IMG/VR virus record: IMGVR_UViG_2579778871_000004
Coordinates: 1 to 40,968 of that record
DNA from: a virus
Lineage: Duplodnaviria; Heunggongvirae; Uroviricota; Caudoviricetes
Strand: one strand, 5' to 3'
Length of the DNA stretch: 40,968 bases
The position numbers and the translations under genes are program-made. Shown here one piece after another: positions 1 through 40,968 of this stretch; the first letter of the stretch is position 1; each line of letters opens with the position of its first letter. The notes below the pieces were generated by a model that had not been told where the DNA came from, searched no databases, and worked only from the letters and a program-made list of their open reading frames with translations.

Positions 1-1284
1 TTACTTCTTCGCCTCTGCAACCACTTTACTACCCACGCCGCGGTTATTGTATTCCCACATGCGGTTGTAGTTAGTGTCATTCAGATTGCGCTGTATTTCG
101 TCGTTATCATCTACGCTGCCGGTATTACCCGCAAACGGACGATTAGAGATCACCGCATCGGCCCACGGTTTAGCCGTGTTAAAACCTTCGTTGATGGCGC
201 TATCACGGATCACCACCTGACCGTTGGTATTGGCATCAACATCCAGCGAGCGGCCCAGTTGCGCCACACCATCACCGAAAGCATTGAAACGGCTGTTTAC
301 GGCGAGGAAACCGTAGTAAATGTTGGACAGCGTAGCCGGTGCAAACACATACGCTTCTTGCTGAGTACGTGAGTTCACCACGCGGAATTCGGTGTTATCG
401 AACACCACTGCGCCGCGACCAGAAACGATATCCACATCCCCTTCAATGTAGCTGTTGGTCACCAGCGTACGCGGCTGACGGTTGGTTTCCAGACGGTTCT
501 GCACACCGCTGTTGGTGACAAAGAAGGTGTTCTGACGACCGAGAATGTTAACGTTGTTAATCTGTACCTGGTCACCATCAGTACGCAGTGCCACCGCCGG
601 ATGGTTACCTGCATCTACGCTATCGCCCAGCGTGTTTTCGATGGTCAGATTTTGCAGTTGCAGGCCATTGTTTTGTGACCAGAAGACCGCAGAGCAGAGA
701 ACACCGATACTGTCGCTGCGTTTGCTCTGGCAGCTATCGTACATATACCACGCTGGTTTACCTGGCATATATTTGCCGCGCGGGTTGACGTCGTGACGCC
801 AGTCGGCAGGGCTCATGCCACCATCAAGGGAAAGCCCAATCTTCACATCAATCGGTTTTTCACCTGTACCGTACAGAGTAATTCCACCCGGAGCGGCAGG
901 GACATATACCGTTCCCTGATACTCACCAGGCATCACGGCAATATACTGGCGCTTGTTGGTACGCTTGATAATTGCCGCATCTACCGCCGCCTGAATCGTG
1001 GTATGCGTTACACCTTGAGTGCCCGCCGGGCCGACAACAAAGTCAGGTTGCGCAGGCAGGGTAATCGGGGAAGGATTCCACGCTGCAGCACCTGGTGTCA
1101 GGGATGCAAAATAGTGTTGAGCATCGAAATTCTGCGCTTCTTTTGCCGACAGAATCGGGCGAGAAGAGGTACCAGGCGCGGTTTGATCAGAAGGACGTTG
1201 ATCGGGCGGGGTTGAGCTACAGGCGGTCAGCGTCACGCCAAAAGCCAATGCCAGCGCCAGACGGGAAACTGAAAATGTGTTCAC
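1..1284 (-). CDS. ybhC: Host outer-membrane lipoprotein YbhC (pectinesterase-family fold), flanking the lambda attachment site
   Basis: 427-aa ORF with lipoprotein signal peptide (..LTAC SS..); recognised as E. coli YbhC, which borders attB-lambda; sits immediately left of the att core. Confidence 0.7.
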   Translation of the reverse strand: MNTFSVSRLALALAFGVTLTACSSTPPDQRPSDQTAPGTSSRPILSAKEAQNFDAQHYFASLTPGAAAWNPSPITLPAQPDFVVGPAGTQGVTHTTIQAAVDAAIIKRTNKRQYIAVMPGEYQGTVYVPAAPGGITLYGTGEKPIDVKIGLSLDGGMSPADWRHDVNPRGKYMPGKPAWYMYDSCQSKRSDSIGVLCSAVFWSQNNGLQLQNLTIENTLGDSVDAGNHPAVALRTDGDQVQINNVNILGRQNTFFVTNSGVQNRLETNRQPRTLVTNSYIEGDVDIVSGRGAVVFDNTEFRVVNSRTQQEAYVFAPATLSNIYYGFLAVNSRFNAFGDGVAQLGRSLDVDANTNGQVVIRDSAINEGFNTAKPWADAVISNRPFAGNTGSVDDNDEIQRNLNDTNYNRMWEYNNRGVGSKVVAEAKK

Positions 1285-7387: not shown

Positions 7388-7462
7388 GGGTAACTCCTTA
7401 TATTTGATTGCATAACGAAAATGCCTCTCGTGAAGCATTATTGGTATGCGGTAAAGCCGCGC

Positions 7463-7831
7463 TCAGGCGGCTTTGATAGTCATATCATCTGAATCAAATA
7501 TTCCTGATGTATCGATATCGGTAATTCTTATTCCTTCACTACCATCCATTGGAGGCCATCCTTCCTGACCATTTCCATCATCCAAGTCGAACTCACAAAC
7601 AACACCATATGCACTTAAGTCTTTCGAAATTGCTATAAGCAGAGCATGTTGCGCCAGCATGATTAATACAGCATTTAATACAGCACCGTGTTTATTGAGT
7701 CGGTATTCAGAGTCTGACCAGAAATTATTAATCTGGTGAAGTTTTTCCTCTGTCATTACGTCATGGTCGATTTCAATTTCTATTGATGCTTTCCAGTCGT
7801 AATCAATGATGTATTTTTTGATGTTTGACAT
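7463..7831 (-). CDS. Ea10-position protein (122 aa), unknown function
   Basis: Same length and location (between cIII and the N-proximal accessory genes) as lambda ea10; acidic C-terminus. Confidence 0.45.
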   Translation of the reverse strand: MSNIKKYIIDYDWKASIEIEIDHDVMTEEKLHQINNFWSDSEYRLNKHGAVLNAVLIMLAQHALLIAISKDLSAYGVVCEFDLDDGNGQEGWPPMDGSEGIRITDIDTSGIFDSDDMTIKAA

Positions 7832-7849
7832 CTATTCATATCCTCATAG

Positions 7850-7877
7850 ATAAAAAATCGCCCTCACACTGGAGGGC
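7850..7877 (-). terminator. Rho-independent terminator (tL-like) between the 208-aa gene and the ea10-position gene
   Basis: Minus-strand hairpin GCCCTCCAGTGTGAGGGC followed by GATTTTTTATC. Confidence 0.5.
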
Positions 7878-7992
7878 AAAGAAGATTTCCAATAATCAGA
7901 ACAAGTCGGCTCCTGTTTAGTTACGAGCGACATTGCTCCGTGTATTCACTCGTTGGAATGAATACACAGTGCAGTGTTTATTCTGTTGTTAG

Positions 7993-8021
7993 TGCCAAAA
8001 ATAAAGGCCGACTATGCGGCC
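7993..8021 (-). terminator. Rho-independent terminator just downstream of the 208-aa gene
   Basis: Minus-strand hairpin GGCCGCATAGTCGGCC followed by TTTATTTTTGG; overlaps the gene stop codon. Confidence 0.5.
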
Positions 8022-8635
8022 TCGGAAGGAAGTCCAATCATCTTATTCAAATCTTCTACCCGTAAAGCAGGAAGTGCTGTACTTGCTTTATCTGCTTCTT
8101 TTGGTAGCAATTCTTTGCTTTCAGGCCAAACTTCAATAAGTCGCTTAACTGTTGTGACTGAGTTCAAAGCAGCCCATACATTTGATTCGATATCCTTTTT
8201 CAAGGCTTCAAGGTTTTGTTGCAATGCGCAGATTTCATCAAACCTTTTTGTTATTTCGTGTTCTGCGTCAAACATGCATTTATCTTTAGTCGGAGTAGGG
8301 AGCAATATATCTTCGCCGTTGCCGTCTTTCCCATATGAATGCCATCCAACCCTTCTGCCAGATACAGTCAGATAAATTGAAGTAGAACGAACATCGTATG
8401 AGTAAAATGAACATCCCATCTTTTCAAGTTCTTCACTTATAGCCATTAAGTTTGATGCCAGCTTGTCCACTTCCTCAGTTTTCTTTTTCCCGCCAAACGC
8501 AATAACTCTGGCGTCAAGTGCAAGCTGGTTCTTTAACTTTGTTACTTCTTCAAGTTCAGTGAAAACCCCAGACTTAATTAAAGCGTTACGAGCGATTTCC
8601 TCTTTCATTCTCGTAGTTAAGCGGATTGATGACAT
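8012..8635 (-). CDS. Hypothetical protein (207 aa from ATG at 8635), pL-operon accessory gene
   Basis: Strong RBS GAGAGGAATTAAT-ATG; no family recognised; flanked by terminators. Confidence 0.6.
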   Translation of the reverse strand: MSSIRLTTRMKEEIARNALIKSGVFTELEEVTKLKNQLALDARVIAFGGKKKTEEVDKLASNLMAISEELEKMGCSFYSYDVRSTSIYLTVSGRRVGWHSYGKDGNGEDILLPTPTKDKCMFDAEHEITKRFDEICALQQNLEALKKDIESNVWAALNSVTTVKRLIEVWPESKELLPKEADKASTALPALRVEDLNKMIGLPSEAA

Positions 8636-8646
8636 ATTAATTCCTC

Positions 8647-8757
8647 TCAAATAAGTGGTTTGCTGCCTAATTTCATTTTCTGGCGACCAACACAAGTCAC
8701 CCCCATTTCACTGCGTGGCTTGCGGTAGTAAAGATTGTGCCTGTCTTTTAACCACAT
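8647..8757 (-). pseudogene. Relic of a lambda-type N gene (C-terminal ~35 codons only)
   Basis: ...YYRKPRSEMGVTCVGRQKMKLGSKPLI closely resembles the lambda N C-terminus (...YSKPGERGITCSGRQKIKGKSIPLI); no N-terminal ARM in any frame upstream. Confidence 0.4.
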
Positions 8758-8842
8758 CAGGCTCGGTGGTTCTCGTGTACCCCTACAGCGAGAAATCGGA
8801 TAAACTCTATTCACCCCTACAGAGAGCAAAAGAGAAACGCCG

Positions 8843-9424
8843 ATGAACAACTCATGGTGGCAGGAACTAATGCATTTTTTCCTGCAAGGAATGACACTTA
8901 AACAGTTGATTCATATGCTAATCATCCTGATCATATTGATTATTGTTATGCCGGTAAGCGTAAAAGAATGGATAAACCTGCATAATCCAGAAATCCTTCC
9001 TCATTACTGGATGTATTACATCCTGTTGTTTTGCGTTAGCTATGTGCTTAACGGCGTTGTTAATTCTGCTTATCACGCTGTGACTGAAAGAATTGAGGTA
9101 TTCGCTGCTCAGAAGCGCAAATCTAAAGAAGAGAAATACGTGCAAGATTTGTTTGATTCGTTAACTCTTGGAGAAAGAGCGTATTTGGCACTCGCTGTAG
9201 TCGCTAATAACCAGCTACAAACGGAAAAGGGAAGCCCTGAAGCAATCTCATTGCTCGAAAAAGGGCTTCTTATTCGGATACCTTCTGCTACTGGATATCC
9301 TGAAATCGACCGTTTTGTTATCCCAGAACGCTATAGAAATGAGTGCTACATTAGGTTTGCTGGGAAGAAAGACAGTCTTATGGATGAACTTATCGCTCAG
9401 GATAAGCACGGCAAAAACAAGTAA
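8843..9424 (+). CDS. sieB: Superinfection exclusion protein B (SieB-like membrane protein)
   Basis: 193 aa, hydrophobic N-terminal segments; rightward gene embedded in the leftward pL operon beside N, as sieB is in lambda and P22. Confidence 0.6.
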   Translation: MNNSWWQELMHFFLQGMTLKQLIHMLIILIILIIVMPVSVKEWINLHNPEILPHYWMYYILLFCVSYVLNGVVNSAYHAVTERIEVFAAQKRKSKEEKYVQDLFDSLTLGERAYLALAVVANNQLQTEKGSPEAISLLEKGLLIRIPSATGYPEIDRFVIPERYRNECYIRFAGKKDSLMDELIAQDKHGKNK

Positions 9425-9440
9425 TTAGCAAATTAATTTA

Positions 9441-9713
9441 TCATCTCGCCGTCAGTTGTTTTGATTTCCGGTAGCCTGCCGCGTAAATGGCTACGTTTGG
9501 CAGGCAAATACTTCCACTGCATTCATCTGCCTTCTTGCAGCGAAGGCTTCCGAGTGATGCTGCTTTATCTGCCCTGACGCAACCAGAGAGCTTTAGCGCA
9601 ATCTTTCGCGCCAGTCGCTGTTCTTGCATTGCCTGTTCACGTTGAGCCTGTCTGCGTGCTCTGCGGCGATTTCTGGCGTTATCGTCAGCTAGATATGTAA
9701 TGACGACTGTCAT
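9441..9713 (-). CDS. N-type transcription antiterminator (P22 gene 24 type)
   Basis: 90 aa; N-terminal arginine-rich motif NARNRRRARRQAQ; C-terminus ..YAAGYRKSKQLTAR recalled as matching P22 gp24; first gene downstream of nutL. Confidence 0.7.
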   Translation of the reverse strand: MTVVITYLADDNARNRRRARRQAQREQAMQEQRLARKIALKLSGCVRADKAASLGSLRCKKADECSGSICLPNVAIYAAGYRKSKQLTAR

Positions 9714-9907: not shown

Positions 9908-9995
9908 AGAATACTGTAGGTATTTTATTGTGTAAATACCCAAGGTATTTATTTTTGGTGAAATAATGATAAGCAAATGAATACAAAGGATATTT
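9908..9995 (-). promoter_or_regulatory. OL/pL: three 17-bp operators (9909-9925, 9934-9950, 9979-9995) with pL -10 TATTCT and -35 TTTACA
   Basis: Operators fit AATAC-N5-GTATT palindromes shared with OR; promoter hexamers with 17-nt spacer read leftward toward nutL and N. Confidence 0.5.
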
Positions 9996-12067: not shown

Positions 12068-12116
12068 GTTAGCTGATTACAGGCATAACCCTGTACAACA
12101 TCAGGAGGCATCCAGT

Positions 12117-12944
12117 ATGGGGTATGTCTCTATACACCGCCAGTTTATGGACAGCAGGCTCTATAAGGACTCTCAGGCAGTACATCTTTGGCTTCACTTA
12201 ATCCTCAAGGCTAATCACGAATCTACTGTCGTCAATACGGATATCGGTCCGATAACTGTTGATCGCGGTCAGATGATAACTGGACGCCCGTCGCTGGTCA
12301 GAGAAACATTCATCCCCGACAACAAAGTTCGGAGCTTATTACGGACTTTTGAGTCGAAAGGGATGATTAATATTTGCTCGATGGGGAAGAAATTTAGCCT
12401 TTTTACAATCGTTAAATATGACGATTTTCAGGCAAAAAATTGTCCAACGGTTGTCCAACGGTTGTCCAACGCAAACACCAGTAATGGCGCGTCTCTCAGC
12501 GGGGATTGTCCAACGGTTGTCCAACGGTTGTCCATAAACAATAATATAAATAATATCTCTAATACTGACGTATTAGAGAGTGCCACAGCAGACAAAAAGT
12601 CTGACAAGAAAAAACCTTCCGTTAGCTGTCAGGATGTTGTCGATGCTTACCACGAAATCCTTCCTGAAGCGCCAAGAATCCGCGCACTGAATGACAAGCG
12701 TAAAAACCAGATCCGAACGTTCTGGCGCAAAGCCGGAGTGATAACCCGCCAACTTGACGGGCATGGGTTCACGATGCAGGACTGGAGAAATTATTTGAGC
12801 TACGTTGGCGAAAATTGCCGATGGATGTTCGAAGAGCGCCCAAACCATCAGCGCGGAACCGTCTGGCACAAAAAGGGATTTGATTTCCTGCTTAACGATA
12901 ATACCTACCTGAAAGTTCGTGAGGGTGAACACGATGACCGATAA
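12117..12944 (+). CDS. Replication initiator, O-like (iteron-binding), P22 gene 18 type
   Basis: AGGAGG RBS before ATG at 12117; the gene contains the ori iterons; followed by a DnaB-type helicase. Confidence 0.7.
   Translation: MGYVSIHRQFMDSRLYKDSQAVHLWLHLILKANHESTVVNTDIGPITVDRGQMITGRPSLVRETFIPDNKVRSLLRTFESKGMINICSMGKKFSLFTIVKYDDFQAKNCPTVVQRLSNANTSNGASLSGDCPTVVQRLSINNNINNISNTDVLESATADKKSDKKKPSVSCQDVVDAYHEILPEAPRIRALNDKRKNQIRTFWRKAGVITRQLDGHGFTMQDWRNYLSYVGENCRWMFEERPNHQRGTVWHKKGFDFLLNDNTYLKVREGEHDDR
12440..12538. repeat. Origin iterons: 6 x 11-bp TTGTCCAACGG in two triplets (12440-12472, 12506-12538), followed by an AT-rich tract
   Basis: Direct repeats seen in sequence inside the initiator gene; AT-rich stretch AACAATAATATAAATAATATCTCTAATA follows. 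Confidence 0.75.
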
Positions 12945-20889: not shown

Positions 20890-21174
20890 GTCATTACAAA
20901 GCCTATCTACGGGTGGGCTTGATAATGAAACCGGAATTTATTCTGGGCCACCAGTTAACGGCAGTACCACGAAACAACCCAAGCTAGTAAGTGGGGAAAT
21001 AACACTGGCAGTCACTGAAAGATGAACCTCCAGCCTTATGGCAAAAAAGATTCTTTGTGGTGGCGGACTGATGGAAAGACATCGGATAGAATCAAGCAGT
21101 GGCTAGGGTAGCTCCCGAAAAGCGGACTCGTCACCGCCTGCCACTGAATCTATGGCGAACAACAAGACGAGGTT

Positions 21175-36772: not shown

Positions 36773-36890
36773 ACCAACCTCCTTAGTTTTTCGCAGGATA
36801 CCATGAAAAAAGTAAACATCTTTTGCCTACTTCACATTTGAATGGTTTGTCATTAGGATGTTTCCGGTTTTTTCAAATATGGAAATTGAT

Positions 36891-37310
36891 ATGAAGAGGA
36901 TTATCGGCGTTGTTGCTGGCGCTATATTGTTATCTGGGTGCGCAACTATTGTTGGTGACGAAACACAGCTCGTGCAAGTGAACAGCAATCCTTCCGGTGC
37001 GAGCTTTAAAGTAAAAGACGAATCAGGCGTGATTGTTGCGCAAGGCAAGACCCCGCAAGGAGTAACTCTTGCCAAGTCAGATGGGAGTTATTTTGGCAAA
37101 AAGAGCTACCAGATCACTATGGAAAAGGATGGGTACGAACCAGTTACCCTGCCAATCAAAGCCAATGCTAATGGTTGGTATATTGGTGGAAACCTTGTGT
37201 TTGGTGGGTTAATTGGTTGGCTTGCTGTAGATCCTTTTAATGGTGGGATGTATACCTTGAAGCCAAAAGAGGCAAACGCATCTCTTATACCATCAACAAA
37301 GCAAGACTAA
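36891..37310 (+). CDS. Outer-membrane-type lipoprotein, possible PEGA-like beta-sandwich domain (139 aa)
   Basis: Signal peptide with lipobox LLSGC; VQVNSNPSGASFKVKDESGVIVAQGKTP..DGYEP resembles a PEGA domain. Confidence 0.55.
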   Translation: MKRIIGVVAGAILLSGCATIVGDETQLVQVNSNPSGASFKVKDESGVIVAQGKTPQGVTLAKSDGSYFGKKSYQITMEKDGYEPVTLPIKANANGWYIGGNLVFGGLIGWLAVDPFNGGMYTLKPKEANASLIPSTKQD

Positions 37311-38801: not shown

Positions 38802-38819
38802 CAGATAACCAACGCAACG

Positions 38820-38844
38820 ACCCAGCTTCGGCTGGGTTTTTTTA
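38820..38844 (+). terminator. Rho-independent terminator upstream of the tailspike gene
   Basis: ACCCAGC-ttcg-GCTGGGT followed by TTTTTT. Confidence 0.6.
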
Positions 38845-38901: not shown

Positions 38902-40968
38902 ATGACAGACATTACAGCCAATGTGATCGTATCGATGCCTTCGCAACTCTTCACTATGGCGCGTTCTTTTAAAGCGGTTGCCAATGGCAAAATTTATATC
39001 GGTAAAATTGACACTGACCCGGTAAATCCTGAAAACCAGATTCAGGTTTATGTAGAGAACGAAGACGGCTCTCACGTTCCTGTTTCGCAACCAATCATCA
39101 TTAACGCTGCCGGTTACCCAGTATATAACGGACAGATTGCCAAATTCGTTACCGTGCAAGGTCATTCGATGGCTGTTTATGATGCATATGGTGCGCAGCA
39201 GTTCTATTTTCCTAATGTGTTGAAGTATGACCCTGACCAGTTAAGAGTATACGTCAATGAAATGCGTGACGAAATATTGCCAGGGGTTGTATTCCCTAAT
39301 GATGTAAGAGCTACGGCAAAGGTTGGAGATATTATTCCTGTTGGTACAACAGATATTCACACTGAATTTGGATTATTTTATATATCACCTCCAGCAAGCG
39401 GAACAATATCGTCATTGAGTCAAAACTCCGCAGTGATTGGCGGGGTAACTTGTTATCTTGAAAAAAGAACACGGTCTAGAAGCACAAAAATTAGCGACTG
39501 GACATCACCTGACAGTGATATAACATCACTAATCAGTATGTTGTTAATATATTTTGATGAGATTTACATAGATATAAATGTAAAAATAACAAATAACGTA
39601 ATATCAAGCCTTGACAATAAAAAAATATTAGCCATCAATCAGGCTAGAATAACTTTGACAGGATCATTGTTTAATAAGAGCTTTGGTGCAATAGAATTAA
39701 CAGGGAATAATATAGAAGTAAGAGATCTGTATTTCAATGGTGATTCAGATGTGACGCCATTAAGAATGGGAAATACTTCTTACGGATCTGCTGATTCAAC
39801 TAGACGATCAAAGATAAGGGCCATTAGATGCACCTTTGATGGAACCGGTCATAAGGGAGCTAACCATGGTAACTTTGTCGTTATCGGCGCTATTGACCCT
39901 GAGATAACCATGCCAAGGTTTATAGGACAATCTAAGGCCGGTGGTAACATGGAGATACTTGGAGTTAAGGGTGGGTTTGTTCAGGGAGGATACGCAGAAA
40001 ACGGGCTGCTTGTTAATTATCATGCTACTTCTGCTGACGGTATTGGATTTCCTACTACTGATTTTCAGTTCATAAACTGTGAAGGAATTCATAATTCATC
40101 AGTTCTTGGGAATGTCGATGGCGCTATAGGTGGTAACAATAACATTAAGTTCTCACGCGGATGCACTAACTGCAAGATTGTTGGCGGTAAATTTACCAGT
40201 ATCGCAAATGGTGCTTTTAATGGTAATGATAGCGTGATAGCTATTCAAGGTTGTAGTAACAATCTCATAGAAGATGTTTTAATCTTCATGAATAATAATG
40301 GTGATTTTAAAAGAGCGTATGATTTATACGACCATAGCGAATCATTAACAGACTGTCTTGACAACAAGATAAGAGGTGGATTTGTACAAATAAACACTCC
40401 AGGGCAGTACAACAGAATCTGCAACGTTAGATCTGACTCAGGAAAGTCAGTGAGAAGGAATAAGTTAGAGAACGTTTCATTCAACTGCTTTAATGGGTCA
40501 AATACCGTTGATGCAATTATGGAGCAATTTAGTTCAACTTCAGGAATGGTATCAGATCAGCAAGTAACTAATTGCTCAGGGCTTGGAGTTTCAACTGTTT
40601 TAAGGAACAGGTCTGGATTGTCAGCAACAGCAGTTACATACCTAAATGGCAACAGAATAGGTAAAGTGTTTGATACATACATACTTGATACAGGTGTTGT
40701 TAAGATTATAAACTCACCATGTGTTGTAAATATAAATAGCTCAGGAGTTCTGTTATCAGCAGTTGGATGCTTAGCATCCAAAACATCACCTGGTGTTTGG
40801 GTGATAACATTTCCGACAGACATGTCGACTGCAGGATATACATTTACGTCACCAGGAACTGGGAGATACATGGTCGTAAACAAGGTATCTGCAACCTCAT
40901 GGACTATTGTAACGTACAGCAATACAGGGTCACCAACTGAACTTGAGTGCAGTATTTCATTCCAATAA
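38902..40968 (+). CDS. Tailspike: P22 gp9-type N-terminal head-binding domain fused to a distinct beta-helix receptor-binding/depolymerase domain
   Basis: First ~110 aa ([11 protein letters not shown]...[21 protein letters not shown]...[13 protein letters not shown]) match the gp9 head-binding domain; remainder is Gly/Asn-rich with beta-helix-like repeats and is AT-rich. Confidence 0.85.

Follow-up and report, generated by a model that had tools for sequence, protein, structure and literature searches.

A chimeric tailspike with an AT-rich receptor-binding module in a P22-like prophage of Escherichia coli

The tailspike gene, its anchor and its receptor-binding family

We analysed a stretch of 40,968 nucleotides, hereafter the window, corresponding to positions 1 to 40,968 of the virus record IMGVR_UViG_2579778871_000004 in IMG/VR (Caudoviricetes). 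It contains a prophage of the P22-like kind (Lederbergvirus), which in E. coli CHS 77 occupies the attachment site of lambda, between ybhC and ybhB-bioA. Our subject is the last gene of this prophage ahead of attR, which encodes a complete tailspike and whose stop codon is the final triplet of the window (Table 1). The tailspike is a chimera, in which a head-binding domain of the P22 type is followed by a beta-helix receptor-binding domain (RBD) that is not of the P22 type. An exact-sequence look-up retrieved the same protein, without differences, as WP_050483967.1 / KDG58944.1 from E. coli CHS 77, annotated in the databases as 'bifunctional tail protein' or 'phage head-binding domain-containing protein'. 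Its 90%-identity cluster contains 46 sequences, every one of them from E. coli, and the members differ from the window tailspike at 3-9 residues.

The virion anchor is easily delimited. Pfam family PF09008 (Head_binding) matches residues 1-113 (E 5.6e-67, 223 bits for a cut-off of 24), and a scan of the full tailspike against Pfam gave no other match. The tailspikes of Sf6 (7sg7), P22 (8tvr, 2xc1) and other phages in the PDB align within residues 1-118 only (E 4e-65 for Sf6 and 1e-50 for P22), and the Sf6 gp14 structure 7sg7 aligns with residues 1-115. We found the same limit in the DNA. Megablast was run against 50,697 records of phages and 5,426 complete genomes of E. coli. Nucleotides 1 to about 345 of the open reading frame (ORF) found matches in 31 of the phage records and in 1,131 of the genomes, at 84-96% identity (90-96% for the E. 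coli genomes, with matches ending at nucleotides 339-348), and the ORF beyond about nucleotide 345 was unmatched in both collections. The head-binding domain terminates with the conserved motif ...LKYDPDQ. Hence, the point where the matches stop places the domain junction at 39246/39247, directly after this motif. The published delineation of anchor and RBD in Lederbergviruses lies at residues 123-126 (Pas et al. 2023, PMC10408124); the junction is found here just after YDPDQ.

Table 1. Features of the window discussed in the text, with positions in the window
Feature	Position	Strand	Basis or remark
ybhC (host gene)	4-1284	-	NCBIfam equivalog PRK10531
Lambda att core GCTTTTTTATACTAA	1331-1345		Adjoins the integrase ORF
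Tyrosine integrase ORF, 356 residues	1419-2489	-	
sar RNA, RF00262	37831-37898	-	Full-length Rfam match, 95.6 bits; beside arc/mnt/ant
Terminator-like GC hairpin followed by a T run	38819-38838	+	Consensus scan (positions 9918-9937 of the source scaffold, L002); between the antirepressor gene and the tailspike start
Complete tailspike gene	38902..40968	+	688 residues and stop; ORF list, exact-sequence look-up
Head-binding (virion anchor) domain, P22/Sf6/HK620 type	38902..39246	+	Residues 1-115; Pfam, PDB, megablast
Left crossover interval	39196..39252	+	ORF nucleotides 295-351; end of the conserved head-binding DNA and domain junction
Neck/linker sub-module	39247..39495	+	Residues 116-198; N-terminal helix and small beta domain; alignment, model
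Right-handed parallel beta-helix	39496..40671	+	About residues 199-590, boundaries approximate; predicted glycan-binding/depolymerase body
C-terminal all-beta domain	40672..40965	+	About residues 591-688; model strands 483-577 (residues 593-687); sliding identity

The C-terminal part, i.e. the RBD, comprises 573 unrelated residues (116-688), and glycine, asparagine and serine together make up 29.7% of it, as opposed to 18.3% of the head-binding domain. The RBD matched no family in scans of Pfam, NCBIfam or PHROGs. Among PDB sequences it gave nothing significant as a single-sequence query and nothing below E 0.5 as a profile, and no match to the endorhamnosidase of P22 gp9 was found. An AlphaFold2 model of residues 111-688, made with ten family members, has a mean predicted local distance difference test score (pLDDT) of 85 and a predicted template-modelling score (pTM) of 0.75. 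In this model a helix at the N-terminus is succeeded by a small beta domain, then by many short strands at regular spacing, and finally by a C-terminal beta domain. The first matches of the model among PDB structures, by Foldseek, were tailspikes and depolymerases of phages, namely Det7 gp208, the K1 lyase, Sf6, HK620 and CBA120 TSP2/4, at 9-13% identity. Taken together, model and fold search indicate a right-handed parallel beta-helix of the tailspike type which is not the P22 endorhamnosidase, and the predicted fold places the RBD within the pectin-lyase-like right-handed beta-helix superfamily. The window tailspike thus shares with P22 gp9, Sf6 gp14 and HK620 gp9 the head-binding domain, the beta-helix fold class and a gene location that closes the late operon behind immI. 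But no sequence similarity of its RBD to theirs could be detected, and structural alignments give only that same 9-13% identity. A previous sequence-only reading of this DNA had confined the match with P22 gp9 to about the first 110 residues and had described the rest as a different, Gly/Asn/Ser-rich and beta-helix-like domain, in agreement with what we observe. It had placed the feature at 39250-40968, which captures the RBD from 4 nucleotides past the junction but leaves out the start of the gene at 38902.

The family of this RBD is very small and structurally uncharacterised. Among 1.84 billion cluster representatives, searched exhaustively with HMMER, no more than 8 clusters proved to be related. 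When 5.8 billion proteins were searched with a word index, 13 relatives came up, which outside the tailspike's own cluster are 46-68% identical over 50-100% of the RBD and at most 72% identical in DNA. The only named relative in the latter search was the tailspike of phage AV101, TSP1 (WJJ54142.1; 66% identity, 100% coverage of the RBD, E 1e-249). By tblastn, AV101 TSP1 is 66.1% identical over RBD residues 3-573, and copies with 59% identity occur in the Salmonella phages vB_SentM_sal1 and SeF3a (157-kb genomes) and one with 55% in Escherichia phage CBA6. BFVD contains one close match only, a protein of 653 residues with 54% identity, whose length equals that of the CBA6 tailspike. The window RBD is homologous to that of AV101 TSP1 over residues 118-688, and neck, beta-helix and C-terminal domain follow in the same order. 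Yet, the anchor of the AV101 protein is of the TSP1 type (PF18668) instead of PF09008, its carrier is a lytic 157-kb myovirus of the Ackermannviridae (Agtrevirus) instead of a temperate podovirus, and residues 116-330 are just 35-58% identical. Contrary to Ackermannviridae TSP1 proteins, the window tailspike has no PF18668 match and is encoded in a podovirus prophage, not in a four-gene tsp cluster. The authors of the AV101 study had already remarked that the RBD of TSP1 resembles proteins in the genome sequences of prophage-carrying E. coli (PMC10791037). Another lineage, which we call P0012 (e.g. WP_236263331.1), has a beta-helix core 59% identical to that of the window overall and 78-88% identical over residues 231-350, but its anchor, neck and C-terminal domain are all different.

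The sub-modules of the RBD differ in their relationships. The neck is its most divergent part with respect to the AV101 group (32-48% identity); it is absent in P0009, mostly absent in P0010 and substituted in P0012. It is also found by itself, at about 37% identity, in P0051 and in 'tail-collar fibre' or 'tail tubular' proteins of the Vibrio phages vB_VpaM_R20L, R19R and XM1, the tblastn matches in the Vibrio phages covering only residues 3-88 of the RBD query. Since it occurs alone elsewhere, the neck seems to be an independently shuffled unit. The best-conserved stretch of the RBD, residues 300-450, is 80-90% identical to the AV101 group. Within the beta-helix, sliding identity over residues 231-330 is 78-80% with P0012 and 50-68% with the AV101 group, whereas over residues 450-688 it is 60-90% with the AV101 group and 25-52% with P0012. 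The C-terminal all-beta domain is common to the AV101 group (60-80% identity) but not to P0012.

Base composition and cassette exchange

The sequence-only reading had called the DNA of this domain strikingly AT-rich from about 39350 onward, and quantitative analysis shows that composition is indeed far from uniform. The guanine-cytosine (GC) content of the DNA of the RBD (39232-40968, 1,737 nucleotides) is 38.2%, as against 47.7% for positions 1-38901 of the window, and the lowest value among other segments of 1737 nucleotides is 40.4% (starting at about 7401; mean 47.7, standard deviation 2.7). Maximum likelihood places the change-point of GC at 39329. At third codon positions (GC3), values are 30% in the RBD, 44% in the head-binding part and 48% on average in the 21 long ORFs of the prophage. 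The AT-richness is patchy, with a trough of 28-33% GC at 39400-39800, inside the beta-helix segment, and a local peak of 46-47% at 39800-40010. In the P22-like phages HK620, Sf6 and CUS-3 the RBD is only 1.1-3.3 points below the GC of its own genome. Hence, a deficit of 9.5 points is unusual within this group, and it is three to nine times larger than those of the P22, Sf6 and HK620 tailspikes. A further stretch of low GC (39-42%) lies in the early region, at 7400-9500.

The composition of the module can be compared among its carriers. We found the RBD on at least six N-terminal anchors, namely the P22-type head-binding domain, the Ackermannviridae TSP1 anchor, two or three siphovirus types, a T7-type tail fibre and an epsilon15-like anchor; those of the homologues include PF18668 or PF03906. 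In the alignment, homology begins within a few residues of the window junction, at ...D-x-x-L/V-R-x-x-V-N-x-M-R. GC contents of RBD and flank are 38.2% and 47.7% in the window prophage, 42.3% and 45.8% in AV101 (L001), and 39.1% and 48.1% for P0012, which is carried by an epsilon15-like prophage of E. coli and Citrobacter beside ppk/ppx (L003). They are 43.8% and 50.5% in a T7-like phage with the PF03906 anchor (L004), 42.1% and 44.9% in a metagenomic phage contig (L006) and 47.6% and 47.9% in a phage of unclear type (L008). For the siphoviruses with tail tube and tape-measure genes the values are 43.5% and 50.0% (L005), 42.0% and 53.4% (L007), and 38.5% and 43.0% (L009). The module is therefore below its carrier in 9 out of 9 cases, and by 2.8-11.4 points in 8 of them. 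The GC profile along the module is also alike among homologues, with a peak at residues 301-370 and a trough at residues 451-530, and that of the window closely follows the P0012 lineage over residues 234-600. Together, the deficit in every carrier and the shared profile show that low GC is a long-standing property of the module family, one that is strongest in the two prophage-borne lineages (the window type and P0012).

The history of the cassette itself is best seen in two other P22-like prophages (L013 and L014) that encode the representative of the tailspike's cluster, P0001. These prophages differ from that of the window in the tail-needle, gp20, gp16 and immI genes. They have an IntS-type integrase directly 3' of the tailspike, and they occupy another chromosomal site, near yfdC-type, mlaA and fadL genes. 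Backbone segments are 66-95% identical to those of the window or unmatched. The 37 differences in the tailspike gene are very unevenly spread (Fisher p = 4e-20): nucleotides 24-294 of the ORF contain 30 (11%; 30/271), nucleotides 295-351 none, and nucleotides 352-2067 only 7 (0.4%). The cassette is thus 99.6% identical to its copies in L013 and L014, whereas the adjoining head-binding DNA differs by about 10%. On the other side, the first 87 nucleotides past the stop codon are identical, about 100 further nucleotides show some 91-95% identity and correspond to the last 84 or so of the L013 IntS gene, and similarity ends 190 nucleotides past the stop (positions 12068-12257 of the source scaffold, L002, and 12068-12260 of L013). 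A segment of about 1.86 kb is far more alike than its surroundings, and the simplest reading is that it was recently exchanged by homologous recombination, with a right crossover within about 100 nucleotides 3' of the stop. Copies of the tailspike are found at two integration sites, and the backbones that carry them number at least three. The prophage of the window has a lambda-type integrase at its other end, and the IntS remnant would hence be a trace left when the integration module was replaced at an earlier time. All that the remnant shows in itself is that the right end of the window prophage descends from an IntS-type phage.

These observations bear on what the low GC of the module means. 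One might suppose that it is a by-product of the amino acids favoured by beta-helices (Asn, Ile, Ser, Thr, Lys, Gly) and tells nothing about history. The RBD is indeed rich in N, I, S, T and G, and in HK620, Sf6 and CUS-3, too, the beta-helix RBD has a GC content slightly under that of the genome. Yet, when the RBD protein is re-encoded with the codon usage of the prophage, GC rises to 45.9%. Synonymous codon choice thus accounts for about 7.8 of the 9.5 points, in keeping with the GC3 of 30%, and amino-acid composition for only about 1.8; this re-encoding led us to reject an explanation that was very improbable to us. The sequence-only reading had put forward another one, a recent and direct acquisition from a phage or bacterium of markedly lower GC that has not yet been ameliorated. 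A deficit this large, mostly synonymous and in excess of those of the HK620, Sf6 and CUS-3 tailspikes speaks for such a donor. However, we could identify no candidate: the nearest relatives outside the cluster reach at most 68% identity in protein, HMMER found only the 8 clusters, the sampled carriers all resemble enterobacterial phages, and the flanks of these carriers have 43-53% GC, none coming down to the 38% of the RBD. The module is lower in each of them, with a profile of similar shape. Even a strong AT shift is thus no sure sign that such a module has lately come from a low-GC organism, since the family is shifted in every carrier, and we regard the low-GC donor as possible but unlikely. 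In contrast, the recent horizontal exchange proposed in the same reading is borne out by the 7 differences found from nucleotide 295 of the ORF to 87 nucleotides past the stop, in a gene whose head-binding DNA differs at 30 of 271 positions. But the exchange that can be demonstrated took place among Lederbergvirus prophages of E. coli and did not involve a low-GC lineage from outside. The new receptor specificity that it was said to bring is new in a relative sense only, as the chimera was already in public databases (WP_050483967.1 and its 46-member cluster).

Predicted function and receptor

We favour the view, which as a whole seems to us quite probable, that the gene encodes a functional modular tailspike made of an anchor and an exchangeable cassette drawn from a shared RBD family. 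Residues 1-115 would dock the tailspike onto the tail hub of the virion, and residues 116-688, presumably as a trimer, would recognise and most probably cleave a polysaccharide of the host surface, which would open the way to the outer membrane for the phage. In P22-like phages the module would travel by homologous recombination as a cassette of about 1.86 kb, the left crossover falling where the head-binding DNA is conserved, at its 3' end, and the right one in conserved DNA just past the stop. Its low GC is a signature in synonymous codons that the module family carries along in any genome. The alignment shows acidic residues that are invariant across the family (D206, D224, E265, E351, E366, D443, D477, D487, D537 and E541), and these are candidate catalytic residues.

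The sequence-only reading had proposed a depolymerase of either O-antigen or capsule. The part on O-antigen fits the homology with AV101 TSP1, which suggests a polysaccharide depolymerase acting most probably on O-antigen, whereas the part on capsule is not echoed by the only relative that was tested. That relative is a tailspike specific for the polymannose O-antigen O8 of E. coli, as spot and inhibition assays showed (Sorensen et al. 2023, PMC10791037). With purified TSP1, translucent zones formed on O8 strains only, and pre-treatment of O8 host cells with it abolished infection by AV101; two other O8 strains, ECOR7 and ECOR72, were not affected by TSP1 (PMC10791037).

Several observations weigh against the modular tailspike as we picture it. 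An identity of 66% to an O8-specific tailspike need not fix the specificity of the window protein. Neither the window RBD nor that of P0012 was found by megablast or blastn in any of the 5,426 complete E. coli genomes (0/5,426), where the P0012 gene, used as a control query, was matched by its anchor alone. The RBD is also internally mosaic, since residues 231-330 are nearer to the P0012 lineage than to the AV101 group, and a mosaic N-terminal third would allow for another specificity. The AlphaFold2 model is that of a monomer and is thus uninformative on trimerisation. Finally, two lineages cannot settle the direction of the exchange, nor which piece was replaced, the cassette or the head-binding segment.

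Which polysaccharide might then be the receptor? O8 is a common serogroup of E. coli, and that the RBD is missing from so many complete genomes speaks, if mildly, against plain O8 and in favour of a receptor that is less common. A window-type tailspike and a P0012-type protein occur together in at least one isolate of E. coli (locus-tag prefix ACP60Z), and neighbouring WP accession numbers indicate that a second isolate probably has both modules too. The P0012 type is also present in Citrobacter braakii and C. werkmanii. Co-occurrence in an isolate, carriage by Citrobacter and rarity together suggest a shared, perhaps uncommon glycan. That the receptor is O8 or a closely related polymannose antigen seems to us somewhat less likely than not. 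If the substrate is a neutral mannan like O8, a glycoside-hydrolase mechanism is to be expected, because lyases require uronic acids. One might speculate further that the module represents an undescribed family of O-antigen depolymerases, possibly beta-helix endo-mannanases acting on O8/O9-type polymannose, of which the prophage-borne branch may have diverged towards a rare glycan of E. coli and Citrobacter, but this is doubtful. An endo-mannosidase is ascribed to coliphage Omega8, but we searched the literature for the mannosidase of classical O8 coliphages and found nothing usable. The 'O8 subtype' of Pas et al., which consists of G7C gp66, MK-13 RBP1 and fGh-Ecl02 RBP1 (PMC10408124), is apparently another family, since tblastn of the phage collection with the window RBD gave no match to G7C, MK-13 or fGh-Ecl02.

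The target could alternatively be a capsular (K) or other exopolysaccharide instead of the O-antigen, or the enzyme a lyase instead of a glycoside hydrolase. But fold similarity at 9-15% identity is no guide to chemistry, and a neutral mannan such as O8 cannot be cleaved by a beta-eliminating lyase. Furthermore, the only member of the family that was tested acts on an O-antigen, and its effect on infection by AV101 points the same way (PMC10791037). We thus consider a capsular target or a lyase improbable. The gene might also be the remnant of a decaying prophage, with no current function. Its position at the edge of the prophage, its AT-richness and the fragment of a foreign integrase immediately downstream would fit with decay. 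Yet, the ORF of 688 codons is intact, the P22-type virion module upstream is complete, most of the family-invariant residues are kept, and the 46 near-identical copies are found in different E. coli, on several backbones and at both integration sites. The intact ORF and the near-identical cluster members made us reject this idea, which is scarcely credible, and retain the functional modular tailspike.

The RBDs of tailspikes decide which strains a phage infects, and they also serve as reagents in serotyping and as building blocks of engineered phages. Their exchange behind a conserved anchor is already well documented, in Lederbergviruses, Kuttervirus, Agtrevirus and others, and so is the transfer of RBD modules between lytic and temperate phages and across genera (PMC10408124, PMC10791037). 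The endosialidase tailspikes of CUS-3 and K1 phages provide a parallel, as they too fuse a P22 head-binding domain to an RBD that is also found on unrelated anchors, but the RBD is of another family. Hence, our results leave the current understanding of RBD swapping unchanged. They go beyond the routine in two respects. The RBD family is very small and structurally uncharacterised and, rare as it is, connects P22-like temperate prophages to lytic Ackermannviridae, T7-like phages and siphoviruses. And the ends of the cassette are unusually well resolved: the locus is a well-delimited exchangeable cassette, with joints where the head-binding DNA ends (left) and shortly after the stop codon (right), which the comparison of three prophages maps to about 60 and 100 nucleotides, respectively, unlike CUS-3 and published RBD exchanges. 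The practical value would lie in the identity of the receptor and in a structure for this RBD family.

Prophage and integration site

The tailspike lies downstream of homologues of P22 gp4/10/26/14/7/20/16 and of the arc-mnt-ant immI region. Domains found in the neighbouring genes are P22_Tail-4, Phage_stabilise, P22_gp7, Inj_translocase, P22_gp16, Arc/Mnt and P22_AR. The backbone is about 96% identical in nucleotides to the Lederbergviruses APC_JM3.2 and IME10 over some 61% of a 24.9-kb query, and the remainder of the window consists of a lambdoid early region and the P22-type virion module. The sar RNA listed in Table 1 is the antisense regulator of the P22 immI region (Rfam).

A second copy of the att core GCTTTTTTATACTAA is found about 395 nucleotides past the tailspike stop, at about position 12460 of the source scaffold. 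There, some 500 bp that include this second core separate the tailspike from ybhB-bioABFCD-uvrB, and the host flank is 99% identical to E. coli. The two att cores and the flanking ybhC and ybhB-bioA genes thus show a P22-like virion module integrated at attB-lambda.

Some other observations are of minor scope. An Rfam match to int-alpA RNA (RF02996, 45.1 bits for a gathering threshold of 35.8) lies at 21096-21158 (+), between the lysis genes and the terminase region. In the gap between the gp16 homologue and immI, at 36858-37310 (+), an ORF of 150 residues with a lipoprotein-like signal (…AILLSGCATIV…) lies in a patch of 39% GC and could be a moron or a superinfection-exclusion gene. In the epsilon15-like prophage L003 (10001-13354), the gene of the P0012-type tail protein (769 residues) has a split Acyl_transf_3 gene behind it, which might encode an O-antigen acetylase.

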